Virus record (IMG/VR): IMGVR_UViG_3300017739_000046
DNA from: a virus
DNA length: 33,671 bases
Strand: one strand, 5' to 3'
Shown: piece after piece, positions 1 through 33,671 of the stretch
How positions within the stretch are numbered: position 1 is the stretch's first letter
Layout: every line of letters begins with the position of its first letter
Notes under the pieces: generated by a model
The model's input: only the letters and a program-made list of their open reading frames with translations
Databases searched by the model: none
What the model was told of the DNA's origin: nothing
Made by a program: the position numbers and the translations under genes

Positions 1-123
1 TAATTTTCATTATTTTACAACGTAAATAAATAAAGGAATGTAATATGGCAAATGGTGATTTAACTAAAGAAATAGAATATGACAAAATAGAAGTTGTACA
101 AACATGGAGTATACAAGTTCGCA
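1..123. repeat. Terminal direct repeat, copy 1 (overlap closing a circular or circularly permuted genome)
   Basis: Bases 1..123 read identical to 33549..33671. The repeat runs from the last 25 nt of ORF 32923..33573 into the first 79 nt of ORF 45..359, so it cuts through coding sequence. Confidence 0.9.
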
Positions 124-359
124 GAGCAACAAAGGTAATGGAAGAACAAGCAGATGGTTCTAAAAAACAGCTAAGTCGTTCTTTTCATCGCCATGTATTG
201 CAACCATTTAATTCAATGAAAGGTTCTGATGGAAAGTGGACACATACTGCTACAGATTTAAGTGGTGAAGATGCTAGTGTTAAAGCTATAGCAGAAGCAG
301 CTTGGACTGATGCAGTTAAAGCTAATTATAAAACATTTACAGAAAGTCAGAGTATATAA
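45..359 (+). CDS. Hypothetical 104-aa protein, fibre-cassette small protein (paralog A)
   Basis: Intact ORF. It is 70/104 identical, without gaps, to ORF 1554..1868 by hand alignment. Its stop (357-359) lies 1 nt before the ATG of the fibre-like gene at 361. Confidence 0.75.
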   Translation: MANGDLTKEIEYDKIEVVQTWSIQVRRATKVMEEQADGSKKQLSRSFHRHVLQPFNSMKGSDGKWTHTATDLSGEDASVKAIAEAAWTDAVKANYKTFTESQSI

Positions 360-360
360 T

Positions 361-1533
361 ATGCCATACATAGGAAAAGGAGCAAACGGATTTGGAATTA
401 GGGAAAGGTATCGCTACTCTGCGAGTGGTAGTCAAACTGCATTTACTGGTAGTGACCTTGATAGTAAGACACTCCAGATAGATAATGGTTCACTTATAGA
501 TGTATACCTTAATGGTGTTCTGCTAGACACTGCTGATTACAATACCAATACTGCTAATCAAGTAACTCTTACATCTGGTGCTACGGCTTCTGATGAAGTG
601 ATGATTATAGTGTATGATGTCTTTAGCTTATCTGATGCTTTAAGTAAATCTGGTGGAGCGATGTCTGGAAGTATAACTAATTTTACTTCTACTGGTATAG
701 ATGACAATGCTGATGCTACGGCTATTACAATTACATCTGATGAAGCAGTAGGAATAGGCAAAAGTTTAACTCCAAATAATTATAGTGGGTATCAATCATT
801 AACTATAGGTGGTTCTGATGCAACTACTGGTGCAACTGTTGATTTAGAAGATAGTAGTGGAAATTTAGAGGGAAGAATTAATGGAACTAATGGGATTGTA
901 TATATAGAAGCAGACCCTAGTGGTGCAACTGGTGCAAGTAAAATTAGTCTTGAAGTAGATGGTTCTGCAAAAATGACAGTTCTTGATGGTGGAGATGTAA
1001 ATATTGCTAATGGCAACCTTGTTATAGGAACTGCTGGTAAAGGAATAGATTTTTCTGCACAAACTCATGCAACTTCAACTGGTGGTCACGGCAATCCTAC
1101 TGTTCAAAGTGAAGTCCTTTCACATTACGAAGAGGGGGAATTTAATTACGGAATGAACGTAAATATGACTCAAGAAACTAATGCTAATTATGGAAGATAT
1201 ACAAGGGTTGGTAATTTAGTAACTGTTAATGCTCGTATGGACATTGCTAGTGTTAGTGGAAGTAATACAGTATTTTTTGCTAATTTACCTTTTGCTGTTT
1301 CAGCCCATACTGGTAGTGGAAGAGTTGATAACTTATATATTGGCACTCTTCAAACATACAATGTAAGCAATGGTGGTTATGATGTAATGGGTAAAAATAT
1401 CTTATGTGAAAATGCAAGTGGAACTGCTTACGCTATGTACAGCGTTCATAATGGTAATCATGCATACATTTTAAATTCAATGGTTAGTACCTCAAGTGAA
1501 CTTTATATGACTTTAACCTATAGAACTGGTTAA
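361..1533 (+). CDS. Tail fibre / receptor-binding-like protein (390 aa)
   Basis: ATG at 361 follows the upstream stop; the 310 start in the ORF track overlaps the previous gene. The N-terminus (MPYIGKG...FTGS...VYLNGVLL..DY) is the type seen in podovirus fibre proteins, and a GGAMSGSI motif is present. The C-terminal domain (GNLVIGTAGKGIDFSA...YEEG...) is paralogous to 32923..33573. Confidence 0.7.
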   Translation: MPYIGKGANGFGIRERYRYSASGSQTAFTGSDLDSKTLQIDNGSLIDVYLNGVLLDTADYNTNTANQVTLTSGATASDEVMIIVYDVFSLSDALSKSGGAMSGSITNFTSTGIDDNADATAITITSDEAVGIGKSLTPNNYSGYQSLTIGGSDATTGATVDLEDSSGNLEGRINGTNGIVYIEADPSGATGASKISLEVDGSAKMTVLDGGDVNIANGNLVIGTAGKGIDFSAQTHATSTGGHGNPTVQSEVLSHYEEGEFNYGMNVNMTQETNANYGRYTRVGNLVTVNARMDIASVSGSNTVFFANLPFAVSAHTGSGRVDNLYIGTLQTYNVSNGGYDVMGKNILCENASGTAYAMYSVHNGNHAYILNSMVSTSSELYMTLTYRTG

Positions 1534-1553
1534 TTAACAAGGAGAAATAAATT

Positions 1554-1868
1554 ATGGCTCAAGGCGATATAACAAAAGAAATAGAATATGACAGAATTGA
1601 AGTAGTTAATCAGTGGTACATTCAATGTAGAGAAGCTACTAAAATTATGGAAGAACAAGCTGATGGTTCTTTAATGGAACTTAATAGAAACTTTTTAAGA
1701 TTTGCACTTACACCCTTTCATTCGGAGTTTGATGCTGATGGAAAATGGACACATACACCAACTGACTTATCCAAGTATGATGCAAAGATAAAAGCTATAG
1801 CTGAAGCTAGTTGGACAGATGACGTAAAGGCATTATACAAAACAGTTACAGAAAGTAAGAAGATATAA
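1554..1868 (+). CDS. Hypothetical 104-aa protein, fibre-cassette small protein (paralog B)
   Basis: An AAGGAG Shine-Dalgarno lies 9 nt upstream. Paralog of 45..359. Followed 3 nt later by another fibre-like gene. Confidence 0.8.
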   Translation: MAQGDITKEIEYDRIEVVNQWYIQCREATKIMEEQADGSLMELNRNFLRFALTPFHSEFDADGKWTHTPTDLSKYDAKIKAIAEASWTDDVKALYKTVTESKKI

Positions 1869-1871
1869 TAT

Positions 1872-2336
1872 ATGAGTAATGCACGAAACCTTGCCAATCT
1901 GTTAGGAACTGGAACTACTATATCTACCAGTAAATTAGGACTTACATTTTCTAATGGTTCAGCCACACAAGATGGTACATCAAATAATACAGTTTATGAT
2001 ATGGTTACTGGTCTTACAATTCCATCAAAAGCATTGATAGTAATTGGATATGATTTCAACCCAAAAAGTGGACAAAATGGTGTGCCAGGAAGTAATGCTA
2101 CTTGTTGGGTACTAATTACTGATAGTAGCAATTCTGCGATTGATAGTTCTACTGCTAGTAATATGGTAAATGCAAATCCAGTAGTTGGATATAGAAATGT
2201 TATTGGACAAGTAACTTATTTTAATGAAACTGGTTCAGACTTAACAAGCCATAAAATAAGAGCGCAACAATACGCTGATGGAACTCTAAATTCATCTGTA
2301 ATCACAATAAAATATAAAATTATAGGATTTGGTTAA
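1872..2336 (+). CDS. Small tail fibre / receptor-binding-like protein (154 aa)
   Basis: N-terminus MSNARNLANLLGTG resembles fibre N-termini, and the body is Ser/Thr/Asn/Gly-rich. It holds the same position after a 104-aa gene as 361..1533. Confidence 0.55.
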   Translation: MSNARNLANLLGTGTTISTSKLGLTFSNGSATQDGTSNNTVYDMVTGLTIPSKALIVIGYDFNPKSGQNGVPGSNATCWVLITDSSNSAIDSSTASNMVNANPVVGYRNVIGQVTYFNETGSDLTSHKIRAQQYADGTLNSSVITIKYKIIGFG

Positions 2337-2509
2337 TGCAAATAACTTGGGAAATGATTTTACATATTTATAAAGATGCCATTCCTAGTGATGGGTATAT
2401 AAATTGCGACATAGATAAAAACTATACACTTGTTTGGACAAGTGAAAGATATGCAGAACCTACAACTAAACAATTAGAAGATGCAAAAACAGAGATGGAT
2501 AAACTATAA
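2336..2509 (+). CDS. Hypothetical protein (57 aa)
   Basis: Hand-translated ORF below the track cutoff. Its ATG overlaps the upstream TAA (TAATG). Confidence 0.4.
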   Translation: MQITWEMILHIYKDAIPSDGYINCDIDKNYTLVWTSERYAEPTTKQLEDAKTEMDKL

Positions 2510-2538: not shown

Positions 2539-2655
2539 ATGCCACATATATATGATTTAAACCCACATTTAGCTCCTCCAGGCTGGGGTAAAAAGAAAGA
2601 GGAACCTAAGAAGAAGGAACCTAAAGAAAAGAAGGACAAACCTAAAAAGAAATGA
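2539..2655 (+). CDS. Hypothetical Lys-rich peptide (38 aa)
   Basis: Hand-translated. GAGGTGA lies upstream of the ATG, and the C-terminus is KKKEEPKKKEPKEKKDKPKKK. The stop overlaps the next ATG (ATGA). Confidence 0.3.
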   Translation: MPHIYDLNPHLAPPGWGKKKEEPKKKEPKEKKDKPKKK

Positions 2656-2822
2656 AACCGACTTTGCATAATTTAGATAAACGGCTGACTTCTTTTGAAA
2701 CTGTCTCTGATGAGAGATGGAAGGAAACCATATTGAGAATTAAAAGGCTAGAGGGGGTACTAATCGGCACGGCTGGAACGACAATATTGTTGTTAGTTGG
2801 TGTGCTAATGAGGGGGTCGTAA
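2652..2822 (+). CDS. Hypothetical small membrane protein (56 aa, C-terminal TM)
   Basis: Hand-translated. ATGA coupling upstream and TAATG coupling downstream. Hydrophobic stretch VLIGTAGTTILLLVGVLM. Confidence 0.45.
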   Translation: MKPTLHNLDKRLTSFETVSDERWKETILRIKRLEGVLIGTAGTTILLLVGVLMRGS

Positions 2823-3304
2823 TGGACCCCGTAAGTGCATTTGCTGTAGCCAGTTCGGCTTTTAAATTAATCCAGAAAGGTTTTGAAACAGGGCGATCGA
2901 TAGAGGGTATGTATGGTGACCTCGGTAAATGGATGGGAGCTATATCAGATGTTAAACACGCTCACTCAATGGCTCAAAAGCCTAGCATATTTAAGAAGGT
3001 GTTTGCTGGATCATCAATAGAGAAAGAAGCGTTAGATGCATTTGCTTTTAAGAAGAAAGCTGAAGAGATGGAAGACCAACTTCGCACCCATATAAACCTC
3101 GTTTATGGACCTAATTCTTGGTCGGAGATACTGAAGCTACAAGCCAAAATTCGTAAGGAAAGGCAACAACAAATATATGAAGTACAGGAGTTTAAAAGAA
3201 AAATTTTTAACATAGTTGGGATTATACTTTTATGCACAATTATAGGTGGTGTTGTGATGTGGATTGGATATTTATTTTACTTAAAAAGGATGGGTAATTT
3301 ATGA
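2822..3304 (+). CDS. Hypothetical tail-anchored membrane protein (160 aa)
   Basis: Intact ORF. The body looks helical and charged, and the C-terminal TM is IFNIVGIILLCTIIGGVVMWIGYLFYL. Confidence 0.7.
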   Translation: MDPVSAFAVASSAFKLIQKGFETGRSIEGMYGDLGKWMGAISDVKHAHSMAQKPSIFKKVFAGSSIEKEALDAFAFKKKAEEMEDQLRTHINLVYGPNSWSEILKLQAKIRKERQQQIYEVQEFKRKIFNIVGIILLCTIIGGVVMWIGYLFYLKRMGNL

Positions 3305-3522
3305 CAAAGATGACACAATTAGTAGAGCAATGGTCACACGCCATTGACAGTTTAAGGATTATACCAAGGGCGTTAATACTTTTTTATATGTATCTCACAT
3401 ACGCCACGGTGTTTTGGTATATGGGATTAGAGAACCCTACCCTACAGCAATCGGGCATGGTGTCAGTTATTACTTCTGCACAGGCTGTGGCCCTGGGATT
3501 GTTTATGGGTAAGTCTAGTTGA
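3301..3522 (+). CDS. Hypothetical membrane protein (73 aa, two TM segments)
   Basis: ATGA overlap with the upstream gene. Two hydrophobic stretches. Confidence 0.6.
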   Translation: MTKMTQLVEQWSHAIDSLRIIPRALILFYMYLTYATVFWYMGLENPTLQQSGMVSVITSAQAVALGLFMGKSS

Positions 3523-3701
3523 TATGGGTTTTAGTTGTGATACTCCAGGGAACAGATATAGAGCCAGACCATGTGTTCTTTACTGATATCAAGACTTGCA
3601 TTGAGTACAAAAAACTGGTCGTTGACCAAAACATCTCACAGAGAATTGCTGGGGATAAGGTTTACATCAAGGCTTATTGCATACCTTCAAAAGATAAATG
3701 A
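3519..3701 (+). CDS. Hypothetical protein (60 aa, hydrophobic N-terminus)
   Basis: Overlap-coupled ORF. N-terminus MIWVLVVILQG. No lipobox seen. Confidence 0.55.
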   Translation: MIWVLVVILQGTDIEPDHVFFTDIKTCIEYKKLVVDQNISQRIAGDKVYIKAYCIPSKDK

Positions 3702-3850
3702 CCGAACTAGAAGAAAAGGCACAGCTACTACGATTGCGAATAAATAAATTAAAGCATGAGTTGAAAGAGATTATGGAACAAAAAACGGACAAGGAAAAAG
3801 CAATATTTGTTTACGATAAAAAGGACCCACATTTTATCAAAAAGTTATGA
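3698..3850 (+). CDS. Hypothetical coiled-coil peptide (50 aa)
   Basis: Hand-translated. ATGA overlap with the upstream stop. Charged, heptad-like sequence. Confidence 0.4.
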   Translation: MTELEEKAQLLRLRINKLKHELKEIMEQKTDKEKAIFVYDKKDPHFIKKL

Positions 3851-3947
3851 GGGATGATTGTTTAATTTAAACTTTAATAAACTTAATTAAATTAATAATT
3901 GCTAATATTAATCTGCAATCATCTCTCGCCAAACAAAGGAGTAATAT

Positions 3948-4346
3948 ATGTTAGGAAGTATTATAGGCCCAATCAGTTCACTAGCTGGAACCTGGCTCCA
4001 GGGCAAAGTTGATAAAGCTAAAGCTGAAACGGATATCAAGGTAGCCAAAGCACAAGCAGAAGCCGAGGTGTATCGTACTTCTGCGACATCGGAAATGCTT
4101 AATGAACAGGCACTTACTGCACAAATGGCTGGGAGTTGGAAAGATGAATTTTGGACTATTATTTTTGGTGCTATTCTTGTGGCTTGTTTTGTTCCTTATA
4201 CTCAACCCTATGTAAAAGAAGGTTTTGATTTTCTTAATACATCAACTCCAACTTGGTTCTCTACTTGTTTATATATTTGTATTGGGAGTTCGTTTGGGTA
4301 TCGGTTTGGTAAGACAGGACTACAACTAATGAATAATAAAAAATGA
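3948..4346 (+). CDS. Holin-like membrane protein (3TM, GTA-holin-type architecture)
   Basis: AAGGAG Shine-Dalgarno. N-terminus MLGSIIGPISSLAG, then an Ala/Lys/Glu helix, then hydrophobic segments. It lies immediately upstream of the lysozyme gene. Confidence 0.55.
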   Translation: MLGSIIGPISSLAGTWLQGKVDKAKAETDIKVAKAQAEAEVYRTSATSEMLNEQALTAQMAGSWKDEFWTIIFGAILVACFVPYTQPYVKEGFDFLNTSTPTWFSTCLYICIGSSFGYRFGKTGLQLMNNKK

Positions 4347-4418
4347 CTACGTTAGAACTAGACATACTAATTGTGACTTACGTCTTTGGAATTTTATTAC
4401 TAATTTTTGGGAGTTAAC

Positions 4419-4862
4419 ATGAATATAAATCAGTTAAGAGAAGAAATAGCTATTGATGAAGGTATTAAGCTGGAAAGTTACCACGATCATTTAGGTTTAA
4501 AAACAGTAGGTATTGGACATTTATGCAGAGATGATGAACCAGAATATGATCTGCCTTTAGGCACTAAGATTAGTGAAGAAAGATGCAATGAGTTGTTTGA
4601 TAAAGATATTAAAATGACCATTAAAGATTGTAAAAAATTATATAAAGACTTTAATGATTTACCAGAAGAAGCCAAAAGAATAATAGCTAATATGATGTTT
4701 AATCTAGGCTATCCCAGGCTATCTAAATTTAAAAAGATGAAAGAAGCTGTCGATAATCGGGATTGGTTTGAAGCTAGTGTTCAGATGACCGACAGCCGTT
4801 GGTATAATCAAGTTACTAACCGTGCCAAAAGGTTAGTTGATAGAATGAAAGCTATTACTTAA
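4419..4862 (+). CDS. Endolysin, T4-lysozyme-like (GH24)
   Basis: Aligns by hand with T4 lysozyme: IDEG (catalytic Glu), HDHLG..TVGIGH (Asp/Thr) and SRWYNQVTNRAKR against SRWYNQTPNRAKR. ATG 4419 has a GGGAG 5 nt upstream. The track start at 4407 is a TTG. Confidence 0.93.
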   Translation: MNINQLREEIAIDEGIKLESYHDHLGLKTVGIGHLCRDDEPEYDLPLGTKISEERCNELFDKDIKMTIKDCKKLYKDFNDLPEEAKRIIANMMFNLGYPRLSKFKKMKEAVDNRDWFEASVQMTDSRWYNQVTNRAKRLVDRMKAIT

Positions 4863-5101
4863 TCTAATATACGGATAGACCTAGCCCTACCCGTCTGTCT
4901 TTCTATAACTTTACGTTCCTCTAACTTAGTCAGCAAACGGTGAATGTTACCCGTTGAACTGCTTTTTTCAATTACTTGCTGACCTTCTATCTGGCCTAAA
5001 GATATTTCACGGACACTAGGAAAGATGCCGTACACATTATTAAACCTTTTTATAAAAGCAAATACGTCTTGTTGCCTGGAAGTAAGCCCAAAATTATTCA
5101 T
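4859..5101 (-). CDS. LexA N-terminal DNA-binding-domain-only protein (80 aa)
   Basis: LTSRQQDVFAFIKRF..G.FPSVREIS and STGNIHRLLTKLEERKVIERQTGRARSIRIL align with E. coli LexA residues 1-70. The ORF ends where the LexA hinge would begin, so there is no S24 peptidase domain. Confidence 0.8.
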   Translation of the reverse strand: MNNFGLTSRQQDVFAFIKRFNNVYGIFPSVREISLGQIEGQQVIEKSSSTGNIHRLLTKLEERKVIERQTGRARSIRILD

Positions 5102-5984
5102 CTTCTGTAGCTCCTAAAAATTTATTATATTCAATACGCTTATCGTACAGTTCTGTCCTAAGAGCTTCTTCCATGCTTTCTTCCATAACAACCCGATTAA
5201 TTTTTTCTAGCTGTTTTAGGTTGGTCCGTTTTTCTGCATTAGTGAAGCCGTCATAGTCTATACAATTTTTCATCATCTCCAGATATTTAACCACCCAATC
5301 CTCGATACGCTCATATTTATCTATTTTGCCATTAGGAAAGTGAAACAAAAAGTCAGATGGTACTTCTTTCTCGATTTGAGGGGTTTCTACGGGGGGTAAC
5401 TGTTCATGGAGTGGTTTCGTATCAGTAATAGATACTTTAGCATCTTGTACAGGGTTTATATGAGGAATATTTTTGTCCTCTGGATAATCTCTAGCTTCTT
5501 CTGCTGTGATAAGACCTTTCAATACATCTGGGAAACTATCTCTTAGTGCATTACCCCTGGCCCTCATCTGCAACATACGATTTGGATATTGTTGCCAGGG
5601 TCCAGCTTTATTCCACAACTTAGCTTTGACAGCATCATCTTTGCTAAAGGTTCTGACGATATCTTCTATGCTCCCGTCAATGTGTCTACGCTTAACAGTA
5701 CAGACAGCCGTTTCTCCATCCATCTTTTCTTCAACACCGACACAGCGATTATCAGAACGGGCCAATGCTAACAATGCATCACCATATAATGATGGCTTAC
5801 CATTTATAACGGCTATGTTCTGTAATGATTGCATTGGATTTAAACCAATCTCTTGACCCCATTGTATAGCAACAAGGCAGTTTGCTTGTTTTCCCTGGTA
5901 GGCTTGTGGCACTAAGGCTGACTTAGATACAACTTCTGCCATCTGCATCATGCCTGTCATGTCTAGCTTCATTAAATTACTCAT
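5094..5984 (-). CDS. RecT/Redbeta-family single-strand annealing protein
   Basis: GLNPMQSLQNI..INGKP and GPWQQYPNRMLQMRARGNALRDSFPDV align with lambda Bet GPWQSHPKRMLRHKAMIQCARLAF. Adjacent to the exonuclease gene. Confidence 0.85.
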   Translation of the reverse strand: MSNLMKLDMTGMMQMAEVVSKSALVPQAYQGKQANCLVAIQWGQEIGLNPMQSLQNIAVINGKPSLYGDALLALARSDNRCVGVEEKMDGETAVCTVKRRHIDGSIEDIVRTFSKDDAVKAKLWNKAGPWQQYPNRMLQMRARGNALRDSFPDVLKGLITAEEARDYPEDKNIPHINPVQDAKVSITDTKPLHEQLPPVETPQIEKEVPSDFLFHFPNGKIDKYERIEDWVVKYLEMMKNCIDYDGFTNAEKRTNLKQLEKINRVVMEESMEEALRTELYDKRIEYNKFLGATEDE

Positions 5985-6885
5985 GTGATATCTCCTTTAT
6001 AGAAAAAATGTGACCTGGTACTTCCTCATTAGTCTCAATTTGTTTACGTTTCTTTCTCATAATGTCCTGGCTTTTCAGTACATAATTTTTAGTGTAGCCC
6101 TGTTCGACACCAATACTTTCTAGCTGAATAATGATCCCGTCTTTTATGTTTTGGGCTTCCTTGGTTTTCCTACGGGCTTCAGCCATGCATTGCAGATAAT
6201 CACCACAAAGCTCATCAAGGTCCTGGTTACTATCTTTTAGCAACTCAACCAGATTGACAGCTTCTACAACGGGTTCTTTTAATGGTGCATAATCTTCATC
6301 ATTCTTTACCAGGCTCCAAAACTCATTAACCTTAAATAAAATTGTACCAATCAATTCTTCATCTCTAGGTACAGGATATATTTTAAGATGACCTTTTTGA
6401 TTTAAAACAGCAACGATACCCCAATTATATCCAGAGCAGATCATTTGATGATGTACCTGGATAACCCATTCTTCCCTCACCTTGTCCATGTGATAAAAGT
6501 CTGTTTTAATTTCCAGGATACCGTCACCGTTAAAAGTATAATCTTCCTGGGTAATAGGATCAGTTATATTTATACCTAAATCTGATGATATGATTGCATC
6601 AATCGAAGCTCCCATTTTATGCTCTTTATTTTGATGTGCAAACTCTGGCATTTCAAAACTAGCGTGTAATTGTTTACAGGCCCATTTTGCTATTCCTTCT
6701 TCCAGGAAGTTACCACGGTCTTGTGCCTGGCTAGGTCTGTACTCATTTAATTTTTCAACACCAGCGATTGTAGCACGATGATTGTCCAGGACCTTCTGGT
6801 TTGTTGTATAAGCTGTTCTGCCTAAAACAATAGCTGGACATTCGCTTGATCCGATTTCTTTACCGACTTGTGTAAACTTTGGCAT
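5977..6885 (-). CDS. YqaJ / lambda-Exo-like PD-(D/E)XK exonuclease
   Basis: ASIDAI ... GILEIKT (D...ExK motif), with the typical YqaJ N-terminus (ECPAIVLG). Start chosen at ATG 6885, which has GGGGAG 6 nt upstream. The track start is 6900. Confidence 0.8.
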   Translation of the reverse strand: MPKFTQVGKEIGSSECPAIVLGRTAYTTNQKVLDNHRATIAGVEKLNEYRPSQAQDRGNFLEEGIAKWACKQLHASFEMPEFAHQNKEHKMGASIDAIISSDLGINITDPITQEDYTFNGDGILEIKTDFYHMDKVREEWVIQVHHQMICSGYNWGIVAVLNQKGHLKIYPVPRDEELIGTILFKVNEFWSLVKNDEDYAPLKEPVVEAVNLVELLKDSNQDLDELCGDYLQCMAEARRKTKEAQNIKDGIIIQLESIGVEQGYTKNYVLKSQDIMRKKRKQIETNEEVPGHIFSIKEISHE

Positions 6886-6886
6886 A

Positions 6887-7153
6887 TTACACTCCCCCAT
6901 AATAATAGTAGCAATTATCGGTCAAGACACAGCTAAACATTAACAGCAAATATGCCATTGCTAATACACCACCAAATGCTATAACTGACAGTACAATTCG
7001 GAATACAGATCGTAACAGAAATCCTGTTTCTGTCTGTCTGTTATCCCTATTCTGTTCTATAAGGCTATTAAGTAGGAACTCAAAATCACGGTTAATATAT
7101 ATTATGCGACATCTTGTTATAAATATGTCCATTAGGTGTAGTAATACACTCAT
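6887..7153 (-). CDS. Hypothetical small membrane protein (88 aa)
   Basis: GGAGAG Shine-Dalgarno. One TM segment (IVLSVIAFGGVLAMAYLLLMF). Confidence 0.6.
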   Translation of the reverse strand: MSVLLHLMDIFITRCRIIYINRDFEFLLNSLIEQNRDNRQTETGFLLRSVFRIVLSVIAFGGVLAMAYLLLMFSCVLTDNCYYYYGGV

Positions 7154-30870: not shown

Positions 30871-32568
30871 ATGACAAGCGTTGATGTAAATGATGTACTA
30901 AAAAGAACTCAATCGACAGCCAATGGATCGACTACGGATTTTAGTTTTTCATTCCAGGTCAACGCTACGAGTGAAATTAAAGTTTACGAAGATAGCACTT
31001 TAAAAACTGAAGGCACACATTACGACATTGTAGATAGTTCGGCTAGTGCTGGATTAAATGCTAACGGTACGGGCGTTGTAAAATTTAAAACCTCCCCTAC
31101 TAACTATACACCAGCTAATAACAAAGTAATTACGATACTATCAGTTATGAGTTTAGCTAGGTCATCTGTCTATTCATCTGGTGGTAATATAACGGCTGGA
31201 TCATTAGAAACAGATTTTGACCGTCTTCATCGCATTGCTGGAGATTTTAAAGAAGTTAAAAGCCGTACAGTTATAGCACCAGAATATTCTGCTACCAACG
31301 TAGATATGACACTACCAGCTAAAGCGACCAGGGCTGGAAAACTACTAGGTTTTAATTCTTCTACGGGTAATCCAGAAGCTACGTTTACTGTAGCTGACGG
31401 TACTACATTGGCATCAGTTACGGCTGACATAGCGACACTAGCAGATATAGAAGATGGTACAGATGCGACAGATGCTATTCAAACAGTTGCTGGTATTGCA
31501 TCAAATGTTTCTACGGTGGCTGGAATATCAAGTGCTGTGTCTACAGTAGCTAGTAATAACTCCAATGTTTCGGCTGTAGCTGGAAATGCAAGTAATATAA
31601 ATACTGTTGCTGGTAATAATTCTAATATAACTACTGTGGCTGGAATAAGCAGTAATGTAACAACAGTAGCTAATGATGGAACTGATATTGGAACGGTTGC
31701 TGGTATATCATCAAACGTAACTACTGTTGCTGGTATTGCATCCAATGTCACAACCGTAGCTGGTAAAGCATCATTAATTACATCTGATTTTGCAACAGAT
31801 ATGGCTTTAATAGACAGCACATTTGTAAGTAAAATGAGTTTAGTTACAAGTGATTTTGTGTCAGATATGGCAAATGTTACATCTGATTTTATAAGTGACT
31901 TAAATGATTTAGCGACATCTGCAATCGTTGAGGACCTCAATTTATTAGCGACAAGTTCGGTTATAGCAGATATGGCTAGTTTAGCTGGTGGTGGTGCTAA
32001 TCCAAACATAACTAGCGTAACAGCAAGTGGCACAGTATCGGCTGGTAATATAGTTGTTACTGAAGATGGTACTATTGTATTTGAGGGTGCTACAGATAAC
32101 GCTAATGAAACAACATTGACGGTAGCTGATCCTTCCGGGGATAGAACCATTACTTTACCAGATGCGACAGGCACGGTGGTACTAGCAGATGCGACACAAA
32201 CATTAACAAATAAATCTATTGTAGCGACACAGCTTACGGGAACGGTAGCAAATGCTAGGCTGGACCAACAGTTACAGGATGTTGCTGGATTGGCTGTTAC
32301 AAATGGTAATTTTATTGTAGGTGATGGGTCTAACTTTGTAGCTGAAAACGGATCAACTGCACGAACATCATTAGGGCTAGGAACATCTGCAACAACTGAT
32401 ACGGGCATAAGCAATGGCAATGTTCCTGTATTTACTTCTGGTGTTGCTGATGATGATTTTTTAAGAGTGAACGGTACTAACATCGAAGGTCGAAGTGCAT
32501 CTGAAGTAGCTACAGATATAGGTGCTGTATCGGCTGGATTTGCTATTGCTATGGCTGTGGCTTTATAG
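30871..32568 (+). CDS. Tail fibre with a T7 gp17-like N-terminal anchor domain
   Basis: GSTTDFSFSFQV...IKVY....YDIV....ITILSVMSLARSSVYSSGGNITAGSLETDFDRLHRIAGDF parallels T7 gp17 GSNRDFNIPFEY...[30 protein letters not shown]. The central part is a 10-aa repeat array. Confidence 0.85.
   Translation: MTSVDVNDVLKRTQSTANGSTTDFSFSFQVNATSEIKVYEDSTLKTEGTHYDIVDSSASAGLNANGTGVVKFKTSPTNYTPANNKVITILSVMSLARSSVYSSGGNITAGSLETDFDRLHRIAGDFKEVKSRTVIAPEYSATNVDMTLPAKATRAGKLLGFNSSTGNPEATFTVADGTTLASVTADIATLADIEDGTDATDAIQTVAGIASNVSTVAGISSAVSTVASNNSNVSAVAGNASNINTVAGNNSNITTVAGISSNVTTVANDGTDIGTVAGISSNVTTVAGIASNVTTVAGKASLITSDFATDMALIDSTFVSKMSLVTSDFVSDMANVTSDFISDLNDLATSAIVEDLNLLATSSVIADMASLAGGGANPNITSVTASGTVSAGNIVVTEDGTIVFEGATDNANETTLTVADPSGDRTITLPDATGTVVLADATQTLTNKSIVATQLTGTVANARLDQQLQDVAGLAVTNGNFIVGDGSNFVAENGSTARTSLGLGTSATTDTGISNGNVPVFTSGVADDDFLRVNGTNIEGRSASEVATDIGAVSAGFAIAMAVAL
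31483..31782 (+). repeat. Ten tandem 30-bp (10-aa) repeats, TVAG(I/N)(A/S)SNV(T/S), inside the fibre gene, decaying into about seven degenerate units up to about 31990
   Basis: Read directly from the translation TVAGIASNVS TVAGISSAVS TVASNNSNVS AVAGNASNIN TVAGNNSNIT TVAGISSNVT TVANDGTDIG TVAGISSNVT TVAGIASNVT TVAGKASLIT. Confidence 0.85.
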
Positions 32569-32577
32569 GAGATATAA

Positions 32578-32913
32578 ATGGCTCAAGATTTTGAACGAAC
32601 ACTAACCAAAGATATAGATGCTAGTCTGACCGATATAAGGGCAACATCAGATAGTGATGATACTGTTGTAGGTTTAAGGCTAGTCAATACATCAACTTCT
32701 ACGATAACGGCTGACGTAGCAATAACTCAAAATGATAATACGGTCCTAGCGTACATTATTAAAAATGCACCGATACCAAGTGGATCATCATTAGAGTTGA
32801 TAGATGGTGGTGCGAAAATAGTTTTACAATCTGGTGATAAGTTAAGAGCCAAATCTGATGCGACAGATAGCATGGATACCATCGTATCGGTGGTAGATGC
32901 GATTAGTACATAG
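32578..32913 (+). CDS. Hypothetical 111-aa protein preceding a fibre-like gene
   Basis: GGAGA Shine-Dalgarno. Composition suggests a beta-rich protein. It occupies the same position as the 104-aa genes but shows no visible similarity to them. Confidence 0.7.
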   Translation: MAQDFERTLTKDIDASLTDIRATSDSDDTVVGLRLVNTSTSTITADVAITQNDNTVLAYIIKNAPIPSGSSLELIDGGAKIVLQSGDKLRAKSDATDSMDTIVSVVDAIST

Positions 32914-32922
32914 GAGTAGAGT

Positions 32923-33573
32923 ATGGGTCACATAGGTAAAACAGTAACACAGAATGTAGTATCTGGAAGTGAGATAACTGATGGTACAGTTACTGGTGCA
33001 GATTTAGCGAGTGATATTGCGATTAATACTACTGGTACAGTAACTGTAGGTGGCACAAGTAATTTAACTATTTCTGATGGTAACCTTGTTATTGGCACAA
33101 GTGGTCATGGAATAGATTTTAGTGCTACGAGTGATGGCACTACAATGTCCTCTGAACTTTTTGACAACTATGAAGAAGGTATAATCACAGTTGGAACAAA
33201 TATGGGTGGTGGTACTTTAACACTAGACAGTACCAATAACCATCTTATTTATACAAAAATTGGAAGAGTTGTTCACATTACTGGTGCAATACAAATGGCA
33301 TCAGAAAGTGGTACAAGTGGACAAGTTTTTCAGCTTACTGGTATGCCTTTTTCTGGAGCAGGAGATTATGATGGTCTTGCAGGAAGGTCGGTAGGTTACA
33401 TCTCACATGATGGTGCTACTGTAACAGATGGTGATGATTTAGTAGGAGTTATAAATGAAGGTGGTGCTGTAATCAATGTATATAGGCAAAATGAAAATGG
33501 GCATAATCTTGGTGGTGGTCAAGTAGACTCCAACTCAGTTTTATATTTTAATTTTCATTATTTTACAACGTAA
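32923..33573 (+). CDS. Tail fibre / receptor-binding-like protein (216 aa), paralog of the C-terminal domain of 361..1533
   Basis: MGHIGK N-terminus. GNLVIGTSGHGIDFSAT...LFDNYEEG and YTKIGRVVHITG...MASESG match GNLVIGTAGKGIDFSAQ...LSHYEEG and YTRVGNLVTVNA..IASVSG in 361..1533. Confidence 0.7.
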   Translation: MGHIGKTVTQNVVSGSEITDGTVTGADLASDIAINTTGTVTVGGTSNLTISDGNLVIGTSGHGIDFSATSDGTTMSSELFDNYEEGIITVGTNMGGGTLTLDSTNNHLIYTKIGRVVHITGAIQMASESGTSGQVFQLTGMPFSGAGDYDGLAGRSVGYISHDGATVTDGDDLVGVINEGGAVINVYRQNENGHNLGGGQVDSNSVLYFNFHYFTT

Positions 33574-33671
33574 ATAAATAAAGGAATGTAATATGGCAAA
33601 TGGTGATTTAACTAAAGAAATAGAATATGACAAAATAGAAGTTGTACAAACATGGAGTATACAAGTTCGCA
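33549..33671. repeat. Terminal direct repeat, copy 2. It includes a duplicated 5' fragment (33593..33671) of the 45..359 gene.
   Basis: Identical to 1..123 by direct reading. Confidence 0.9.

Follow-up and report, generated by a model that had tools for sequence, protein, structure and literature searches.

A phrog_6228 protein encoded directly after YEEG-tipped fibre genes of aquatic phages is a candidate fibre partner

The window analysed here is the whole stretch of viral DNA in IMG/VR record IMGVR_UViG_3300017739_000046, 33,671 nucleotides (nt) long, and it comes from a podovirus that carries two genes for small proteins of 104 amino acids (aa), 104A and 104B. Both belong to the family phrog_6228. 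We found that members of this family are encoded almost always directly after a fibre gene that ends in one particular type of C-terminal domain, called here the YEEG domain after its invariant motif, and that the two are exchanged together among related phages. On this basis the small gene very probably pairs with the fibre gene upstream of it. We propose, with a probability of about 0.6, that the 104-aa protein helps its cognate YEEG domain, either as a chaperone for folding or trimerisation or as an accessory subunit retained on it.

Results

Two phrog_6228 genes, each preceded by a fibre gene

Positions 1..123 of the window are repeated exactly at its other end, which shows that the genome is a closed circle of 33,548 base pairs (bp). 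Because the ends of the window overlap by 123 bp, a gap of only 19 nt separates the stop codon of a 216-aa fibre gene from the ATG at 45. The window consequently contains the start of 104A twice, with its first 78 nt recurring at 33594..33671. The fibre genes before 104A and 104B encode the proteins of slot 1 and slot 2, respectively, and each is in a different frame from the 104-aa gene that follows it. The features of the two units are as follows.

33549..33671, no strand: terminal direct repeat, a copy of 1..123 that marks circular closure
32923..33573, plus strand: slot-1 fibre or receptor-binding protein of 216 aa, ending in the YEEG domain
32923..33044, plus strand: conserved N-terminal part of the 216-aa fibre, aa 1 to about 40
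33043..33570, plus strand: YEEG beta-sandwich domain of the 216-aa fibre, aa about 41-216; the match to the profile hidden Markov model (HMM) reaches the last residue
26..44, plus strand: 19-nt spacer from the 216-aa stop to the 104A start, with ribosome-binding site ATAAATAAAGGAATGTAAT
45..359, plus strand: 104A, 104 aa, phrog_6228
361..1533, plus strand: slot-2 fibre or receptor-binding protein of 390 aa, phrog_17970; conserved N-terminal part 361..~732, then a variable middle, then the YEEG domain at ~973..1530
1534..1553, plus strand: 20-nt spacer from the 390-aa stop (1533) to the 104B start, with ribosome-binding site TTAACAAGGAGAAATAAATT
1554..1868, plus strand: 104B, 104 aa, phrog_6228

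104A and 104B align without gaps and are identical at 70 of 104 residues (67%; BLASTP expect value (E) 3e-51), just as an earlier reading of the bare sequence (the original prediction) had counted by hand. That prediction had also called the duplication old from its low DNA identity, and the age is borne out: the two genes are 67% identical in DNA, with the 19-mer AAAGAAATAGAATATGACA common to both, and differ by 0.31 nonsynonymous (dN) and 1.52 synonymous (dS) substitutions per site. A dN/dS of 0.20 at a dS of 1.5 indicates that both open reading frames (ORFs) are real genes under purifying selection and that their split is old. Across the small family dN/dS is 0.2-0.3.

The HMM of phrog_6228 matched 104A with E 6.9e-15 (residues 1-102) and 104B with E 4.5e-11 (residues 1-103). 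The family had been described as unrecognised, and so it is: its function is unannotated, all isolate records call its members hypothetical, and a search of the PDB sequence set with the 104-aa protein gave no match. Public data hold more than 3000 clusters of the family at 90% identity, many of them 83-93% identical to 104A, and 183 clusters at 50% identity, nearly all of which are stand-alone proteins of 85-110 aa. Proteins at that same 83-93% identity to 104A were found in many marine contigs. Between 56 and 68 isolate genomes carry a member, among them cyanopodoviruses, cyanomyoviruses, pelagiphages, the SAR11 siphovirus Kolga, the OM43 myovirus Melnitz and a roseophage. All phages in which the family was found are aquatic, and a scan of bacterial genomes gave no convincing homologue and one marginal partial match. 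Aquatic phages carry the family widely, and bacterial genomes apparently lack it.

The original prediction had suggested modelling the 104-aa protein alone. An AlphaFold2 (AF2) model of 104A, built on a 63-sequence alignment, reached a predicted local distance difference test score (pLDDT) of 95.5 and matched no PDB fold. It consists of three 13-residue beta strands, two short strands and two C-terminal helices. Matches to the model in BFVD, searched with Foldseek, were uncharacterised members of phrog_6228 only. A RanBD-like PDB profile match to the 104-aa protein (whole-sequence E 0.011, per-domain E 39) was rejected as chance. No natural fusion of the family to a fibre was present among 150 representatives. 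Two long matches in the representative search were each made up of ten short stretches, and the one that was retrieved (P0177) proved to be an unrelated repeat protein.

The small gene very probably goes with the fibre gene upstream

The original prediction had recognised modules of a fibre plus a small partner and had assigned each 104-aa protein to the gene that follows it. The spacing it noted is correct, since 1 nt separates the 104A stop at 359 from the next ATG at 361, and 3 nt separate the 104B stop at 1868 from that at 1872. The kind of module stands as well. The pairing with the downstream gene does not.

About 230 loci were fetched with four family members as single queries. They were drawn from podo-, myo- and siphoviruses, and a domain HMM was built for the YEEG domain. 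In small genes from other phages, the ORF directly upstream carried the domain in 212 of 224 cases (95%) and the ORF directly downstream in 12 of 212 (6%). In the first 12 loci every protein directly upstream ended in the domain, and the downstream proteins were mutually unrelated. Conversely, 211 of 241 genes with a YEEG domain were directly followed by a small gene, and most of the exceptions were two such fibre genes in a row before one small gene, or loci of inverse order. We also compiled an unbiased table of 500 unique pairs, each an ORF of at least 120 aa and then a small ORF. Here 179 of the 184 phrog_6228 members followed the C-terminus cluster of the YEEG domain (181 members), and the adjusted mutual information between small-gene family and upstream C-terminus cluster was 0.79. 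The adjacency rule was seen in T7-like cyanopodoviruses, pelagiphages, the SAR11 siphovirus Kolga, a T4-like cyanophage, an OM43 phage and metagenomic T4-like contigs. The link between phrog_6228 and phrog_17970 is not recorded in the PHROGs annotation that we examined. The real repeated unit of the module is the 216-aa fibre gene with 104A, and the 390-aa fibre gene with 104B.

It is highly improbable that the 104-aa protein serves as adaptor or chaperone for the fibre-like protein encoded downstream, that is, 104A for the 390-aa protein and 104B for a 154-aa protein. The downstream proteins form no family, with lengths between 54 and about 640 aa and mostly no relation to one another, and the scarcity of downstream YEEG domains tells the same way. 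The same 390- or 154-type N-terminus is preceded by varied small families, which track the upstream C-terminus, and in T7-like cyanophages the small gene comes after the single tail fibre and is followed by short ORFs only. The DNA common with contig L004 stops at the end of 104A. The tight spacing nevertheless fits such a role, and elsewhere the two genes often overlap (-4 or -1 nt). Among pairs of small proteins 90-98% identical, moreover, 17% reach at least 80% identity in the downstream protein and 0% in the upstream YEEG domain. In about 7 loci the order is inverse, with the YEEG-domain gene following the small gene.

The inverse-order loci (L174, L176, L167, L183, L177, L172 and L226) are cyanophage-type. 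In L167 and L174 the fibre before the small gene ends in an apparent Peptidase_S74-type motif, as judged by eye, and in L177 the protein preceding the small gene carries a Phage_tail_APC-like motif.

The upstream fibres end in a beta-sandwich tip domain

The YEEG domain is about 170 aa long. Its invariant YEEG (consensus LDDYEEGTWTP) precedes the motifs YTKIG and LPF, and TY.T stands at its end. In the slot-2 fibre it was matched at aa 222-406 of a 407-aa ORF. For the gene itself, a start at ATG 361 and not at 310 is supported, as homologues align from their own first residue. The 216-aa and 390-aa fibres have homologous C-terminal domains (37% identity, E 2e-15), and both fibres match phrog_17970 (E about 1e-12), a family without name or function. 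Neither has a Pfam match, and thus no C-terminal Peptidase_S74 auto-chaperone domain was detected in them.

The profile of the domain matched residues 411-515 of 6F7D, the C-terminal beta-sandwich of the Det7 gp208 tailspike, with an hmmsearch E of 4.4e-6. In the AF2 model of the 216-aa fibre, residues 84-216 are all-beta, with a block-mean pLDDT of about 88-97 across 81-216. Foldseek placed this model on 6F7D/6F7K with a root-mean-square deviation of 2.1-2.2 A over 138 columns (probability 1.00, E 6e-4). The domain boundaries of Det7 gp208 were taken from a preprint on the epsilon15 tailspike (10.64898/2026.07.31.742079). The profile match and the superposition together identify the YEEG domain as a distal fibre or spike domain. 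It lies at the extreme C-terminus of its carriers (median 0 residues from the end, maximum 22), which span 166 to 1310 aa, and its sequences fall into 131 clusters at 50% identity.

Fibre tips and small genes are exchanged together

Close relatives of the phage (L268/L271, a 34-kilobase (kb) contig; L269/L270; L273; L277; L278) keep the N-terminus of the main fibre, a 111-aa gene, and the first ~40, ~106 and 22 aa of the 216-, 390- and 154-aa proteins. They exchange the C-terminal part of each fibre jointly with the next small gene. The N-terminal 106 aa of the 390-aa fibre are 78-95% identical in relatives with differing C-termini. Cassette swapping, which the original prediction had proposed to look for in related genomes, does occur, with the small gene moving along with the C-terminus of the upstream fibre.

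Pairs of C-terminus type and small family were then sorted by the fibre N-terminus, with S for the small family phrog_6228 and 0 for the YEEG type. Behind the 216-aa-type N-terminus the pairs were (0,S) twice, (3,T) twice, (3,#39) once and (2,#1) three times. Behind the 390-aa-type N-terminus they were (0,S) 15 times and (8,#1) three times, with other types in single cases. In this anchor-matched set, phrog_6228 came after no C-terminus type other than YEEG, and the C-terminus type predicted the small family. In small cluster #1, the members of 93 aa score above the threshold for Pfam PF16778, Phage_tail_APC (33.4 bits against a cutoff of 26.6), and match PHROG 'tail fiber assembly' families as well.

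The same boundaries appeared in the DNA. Homology to L268 and L269 ends at 33044, the junction between N-terminus and YEEG domain, and with L268 it resumes at the small gene. Contig L004 is 91% identical in nucleotides exactly over the YEEG domain and 104A (33082..33893), and shares nothing downstream. The breakpoints of the mosaic fall where the N-terminus of a fibre meets its C-terminus, and where the small gene ends. A more distant case is L010, a 141-kb marine contig with T4-type gp13/14/15, in which the homologue sits in the 'host recognition cluster' of pelagimyophage work. Identity to 104A is 85% in nucleotides and confined to the gene plus or minus 8 nt; 45..359 compared with L010:6001-6318 gives a dS of 0.44, and the proteins are 86% identical. 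Nucleotide identity this high between phages as different as the 33.5-kb podovirus and the T4-like contig suggests that genes have flowed between morphotypes relatively recently.

This mosaicism raises the question of whether the small gene has any fibre function, or is instead a mobile or hitch-hiking gene (for instance for an exclusion or host-interaction factor) or a homology arm for recombination. The gene is an island of DNA conservation between hypervariable neighbours, as the narrow homology to L010 illustrates; the small protein and the YEEG domain do not co-diverge; and the phage encodes RecT and YqaJ recombination proteins. We consider this very unlikely all the same. The gene has a 97% tie to one type of C-terminal domain, with the same orientation in three morphotypes and four or more host groups, and recognised tail-fibre assembly proteins fill the same slot when the tip type differs. 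Its product is well folded and under purifying selection. A role as recombination arm would be compatible with the chaperone model as a by-product, and is not an alternative to it.

The slot of 104A also holds another small family in relatives. This second unannotated family, of 88-91 aa and with MADYTVKLTDTEDKAM...CNANG..., always came after one other fibre C-terminus type (7/7), and is a candidate for a further fibre-partner family. Its loci are as follows.

L268:3724-3996, 88-91-aa family
L269:3726-3992, 88-91-aa family
L272:3715-3990, 88-91-aa family
L275:1133-1402, 88-91-aa family
L279:2775-3044, 88-91-aa family

Origin of the two copies

To call the two units a tandem duplication, as the original prediction did, was an overstatement. 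As many as 57 small proteins from other loci are closer to 104A than 104B is (up to 90-93% identical), and 11 are closer to 104B than 104A is. No relative of 104B exceeded about 76% identity among the fetched sequences, or 74% over its full length in IMG/VR. Each copy in three further two-copy genomes likewise has closer relatives elsewhere. Because each of 104A and 104B has closer relatives in other phages, a recent duplication within the genome was rejected. The units are better described as two cassettes of the same type in adjacent fibre slots.

Proposed function of the 104-aa protein

We suggest that three slots, arrayed behind the main fibre and the conserved 111-aa gene, make up the fibre module. 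Each slot would consist of a fibre with a lineage-conserved N-terminus and an exchangeable C-terminal part for host recognition, and then a small cognate partner. Slots 1 and 2 would hold the same type of cassette, namely a YEEG-tipped fibre, 19-20 nt and a 104-aa phrog_6228 gene. The 104-aa protein would act on the C-terminal domain of the fibre encoded directly upstream, where it would aid folding or trimerisation of this distal domain and might remain bound. Its position and orientation, its co-swapping with the tip and its positional equivalence to fibre-assembly proteins argue for such a helper; physical binding and chaperone activity are what we infer from the observed synteny, co-swapping and folds. 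Since the tip is hypervariable, in contrast to the highly conserved small gene, it is probably the neck or core, the conserved part of the domain, that the protein recognises, and not its variable surface. The motifs recognised would be GIDFSA, YEEG, YTKIG, LPF and the terminal TY.T. The same conservation argues that the 104-aa protein is not itself the receptor-binding surface.

Several observations weigh against a helper of the YEEG domain. No Pfam family matched either 104-aa protein at E<=0.1, PF02413 (Caudo_TAP) and PF16778 (Phage_tail_APC) included. A Foldseek search of the 104-aa model against PDB gave a best E of 0.012, template-modelling (TM) scores of at most 0.30 and no phage protein in the top 50. 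The virion proteomics literature on phages with a 104-aa homologue yielded nothing usable, and the cryo-electron microscopy (cryo-EM) paper on P-SCSP1u does not mention the gene after the fibre. The loci of inverse order count against it too. Small protein and tip, moreover, diverge largely independently: in pairs with small proteins 90-98% identical the median identity of the YEEG domain is 23%, and their co-divergence is weak (Spearman 0.24). Without co-divergence with the bulk of the tip, a specific binder would have to read the conserved core only. Lastly, distant relatives of the domain occur in phages outside the detected range of the small family (the Det7 and epsilon15 tailspikes), so that the beta-sandwich fold as such may not need the small protein.

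The 104-aa protein could also be a subunit of the virion that is retained on the YEEG domain as a cap, knee, connector or co-adhesin, and is not a transient chaperone. This is possible, though we doubt it. It rests on the same synteny and co-swapping as the chaperone, and some downstream fibre partners do remain bound, for example T2-type gp38 and Mu Tfa. Fibre-like genes often follow the small gene, which makes serial or branched fibres conceivable, and the Pelagibacter phage HTVC168P fuses pieces that are separate genes here. A subunit in contact with the receptor should, however, vary with the host, whereas the protein is 86% identical between the podovirus and the T4-like myovirus contig and remains conserved in phages whose hosts are cyanobacteria, SAR11, OM43 or Roseobacter. 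The only ORFs that come after its gene in cyanopodoviruses and SynMITS9220M01 are 54-172 aa long, and none of these was recognised as a fibre gene. A sequence search did not find the homologue in the deposited P-SCSP1u virion model, which is weak evidence because the distal fibre is unresolved there.

A bolder extension of the helper proposal, and in our view a rather unlikely one, is that the phrog_6228 gene and the YEEG neck are universal docking and recombination boundaries of a plug-and-play tip cassette that podo-, myo- and siphoviruses of unrelated marine hosts have in common. One small protein would then fold, or stay bound to, tips that are only about 20% identical, and its gene would supply the downstream homology arm for exchange of host-range determinants between phage families.

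Other genes of the module and its surroundings

Around the circle, the plus-strand order is the 565-aa main fibre, the 111-aa gene, the 216-aa fibre, 104A, the 390-aa fibre, 104B, the 154-aa gene and a 57-aa ORF. The members outside the two repeated units are as follows.

30871..32568, plus strand: putative main tail fibre of 565 aa, in the position of T7 gp17, after the internal virion protein genes
32578..32913, plus strand: 111-aa protein, phrog_1276, kept after the main fibre in relatives
1872..2336, plus strand: slot-3 fibre-like protein of 154 aa, with a conserved 22-aa N-terminus that recurs in relatives
2336..2509, plus strand: 57-aa ORF in the partner position, overlapping the 154-aa stop by one base

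The original prediction had counted 32578..33573 as a third unit of small gene and fibre gene. The 111-aa protein turned out to be unrelated to the 104-aa family (hhalign probability 0.2%) and lies outside the repeated unit. In most relatives it is 79-95% conserved after the main fibre (47% in L280), whatever the fibre C-terminus. In the T4-like contig L010 two tandem 109-aa genes (645-974 and 987-1316) stand at the equivalent place, and one of them matches the 111-aa protein (36%).

The slot-3 protein of 154 aa shows no homology to the 390-aa protein; its C-terminal part is not a YEEG domain, and its gene is without a 104-aa partner. In relatives, members of a Tfa-like cluster of small proteins occupy the position after a gene of the 154-aa type. 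The 57-aa ORF resembles this cluster weakly (6-7 bits), with a C-terminal TEMDKL in common, and matches XkdW with E 0.099.

The original prediction had called the 565-aa main fibre gp17-like. Its shaft repeats share 58% identity over 126 aa with the fibre that is annotated as such in HTVC168P. The protein has no Pfam, PHROG or PDB match, and none to the P-SCSP1u fibre either. HTVC168P gp39 (L002, 2788-5970) is a single tail fibre of 1060 aa with a YEEG domain, and also contains shaft repeats like those of the 565-aa fibre and a segment like the N-terminus of the 390-aa fibre; the pieces fused in it are separate genes in the window. On the minus strand, at 31479..32483, a 334-aa ORF runs antisense within the VAGISSNVTTVAG repeat region of the main fibre gene, and is most likely a by-product of the fibre repeats, not a gene.

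Portal, scaffold, capsid and nozzle genes were recognised in the window by Pfam matches and an internal virion protein gene by a PHROG match, alongside the putative main fibre. The capsid protein is 60% identical to that of Methylophilales phage MEP301 and ~36% to that of the Pelagibacter podovirus EXVC031P Hodr (34 kb). Scans of the fibre module for promoters and terminators gave nothing exceeding shuffled expectation. After the 57-aa ORF, still on the plus strand, come small genes, several with C-terminal hydrophobic stretches, and then lysozyme. These lie at 2652..4862, 3' of the fibre module, and encode proteins of 56, 160, 73 and 132 aa and a T4-lysozyme-like endolysin (4407..4862); the region is probably a lysis cassette and is kept in relatives. 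Farther on, genes for a RecT-family annealase and a YqaJ-type exonuclease occupy 5094..5984 and 5977..6900, both on the minus strand. Such a phage-encoded recombination system could promote cassette mosaicism of the fibre module.

Discussion

The arrangement described here resembles known pairs of fibre and helper. Tfa, gp38 and Phage_tail_APC proteins assist the folding or trimerisation of other fibre tips. As in lambda Stf/Tfa, P2 H/G and Mu S/U, the 104-aa gene comes directly after a fibre gene (19 and 20 nt) and is exchanged with the C-terminal part of that fibre, while the N-terminus is lineage-specific; relatives carry PF16778 members in the identical slot. Unlike the Tfa-type proteins, to which it has no sequence similarity, the 104-aa family is predicted to form a long three-stranded meander with two C-terminal helices. 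It is also smaller (85-105 aa) and far more conserved than the tip, and any activity of the Tfa kind would be by analogy.

In T4, the small gene for gp38 comes after the distal fibre gene for gp37 and its product acts at the tip, and cassette exchange is bounded by conserved segments; the 104-aa protein has no homology to it. T2-type gp38 carries hypervariable receptor-binding loops, whereas the 104-aa protein is conserved, in its low dN/dS as in its 86% identity across morphotypes, and the neighbouring YEEG domain is the variable partner. The tailspikes Det7 gp208 (DettilonTSP, 6F7D/6F7K) and epsilon15 gp20 share a homologous distal beta-sandwich with the 216-aa and 390-aa fibres. Here, in contrast, the domain follows a thin fibre or a short N-terminus and not the body of a beta-helix enzyme, and it has the invariant YEEG neck motif and is coupled to a phrog_6228 gene. 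The 104-aa family is most likely an unrecognised, structurally distinct family of fibre partners that is tied to one class of tip domain.

To our knowledge, nearly every receptor-binding gene of the phages most abundant in the ocean, which infect SAR11, Prochlorococcus/Synechococcus and OM43, is annotated as hypothetical. A small gene that directly follows a YEEG tip in 95% of loci, in all three tailed morphotypes, helps to locate host-range determinants in metagenomes, and the same rule delimits the exchangeable cassette. The logic of fibre plus helper is familiar; the family is abundant and crosses morphotypes and hosts. Should the 104-aa protein prove to be a chaperone or a subunit retained on the tip, it would represent a new structural family of fibre-assembly factor with unusually broad client tolerance, which would be useful for expressing marine phage fibres. 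If the small gene and the YEEG neck are also docking boundaries, they would provide a general marker by which receptor-binding genes could be found in uncultured marine phages, and a means of engineering these genes.

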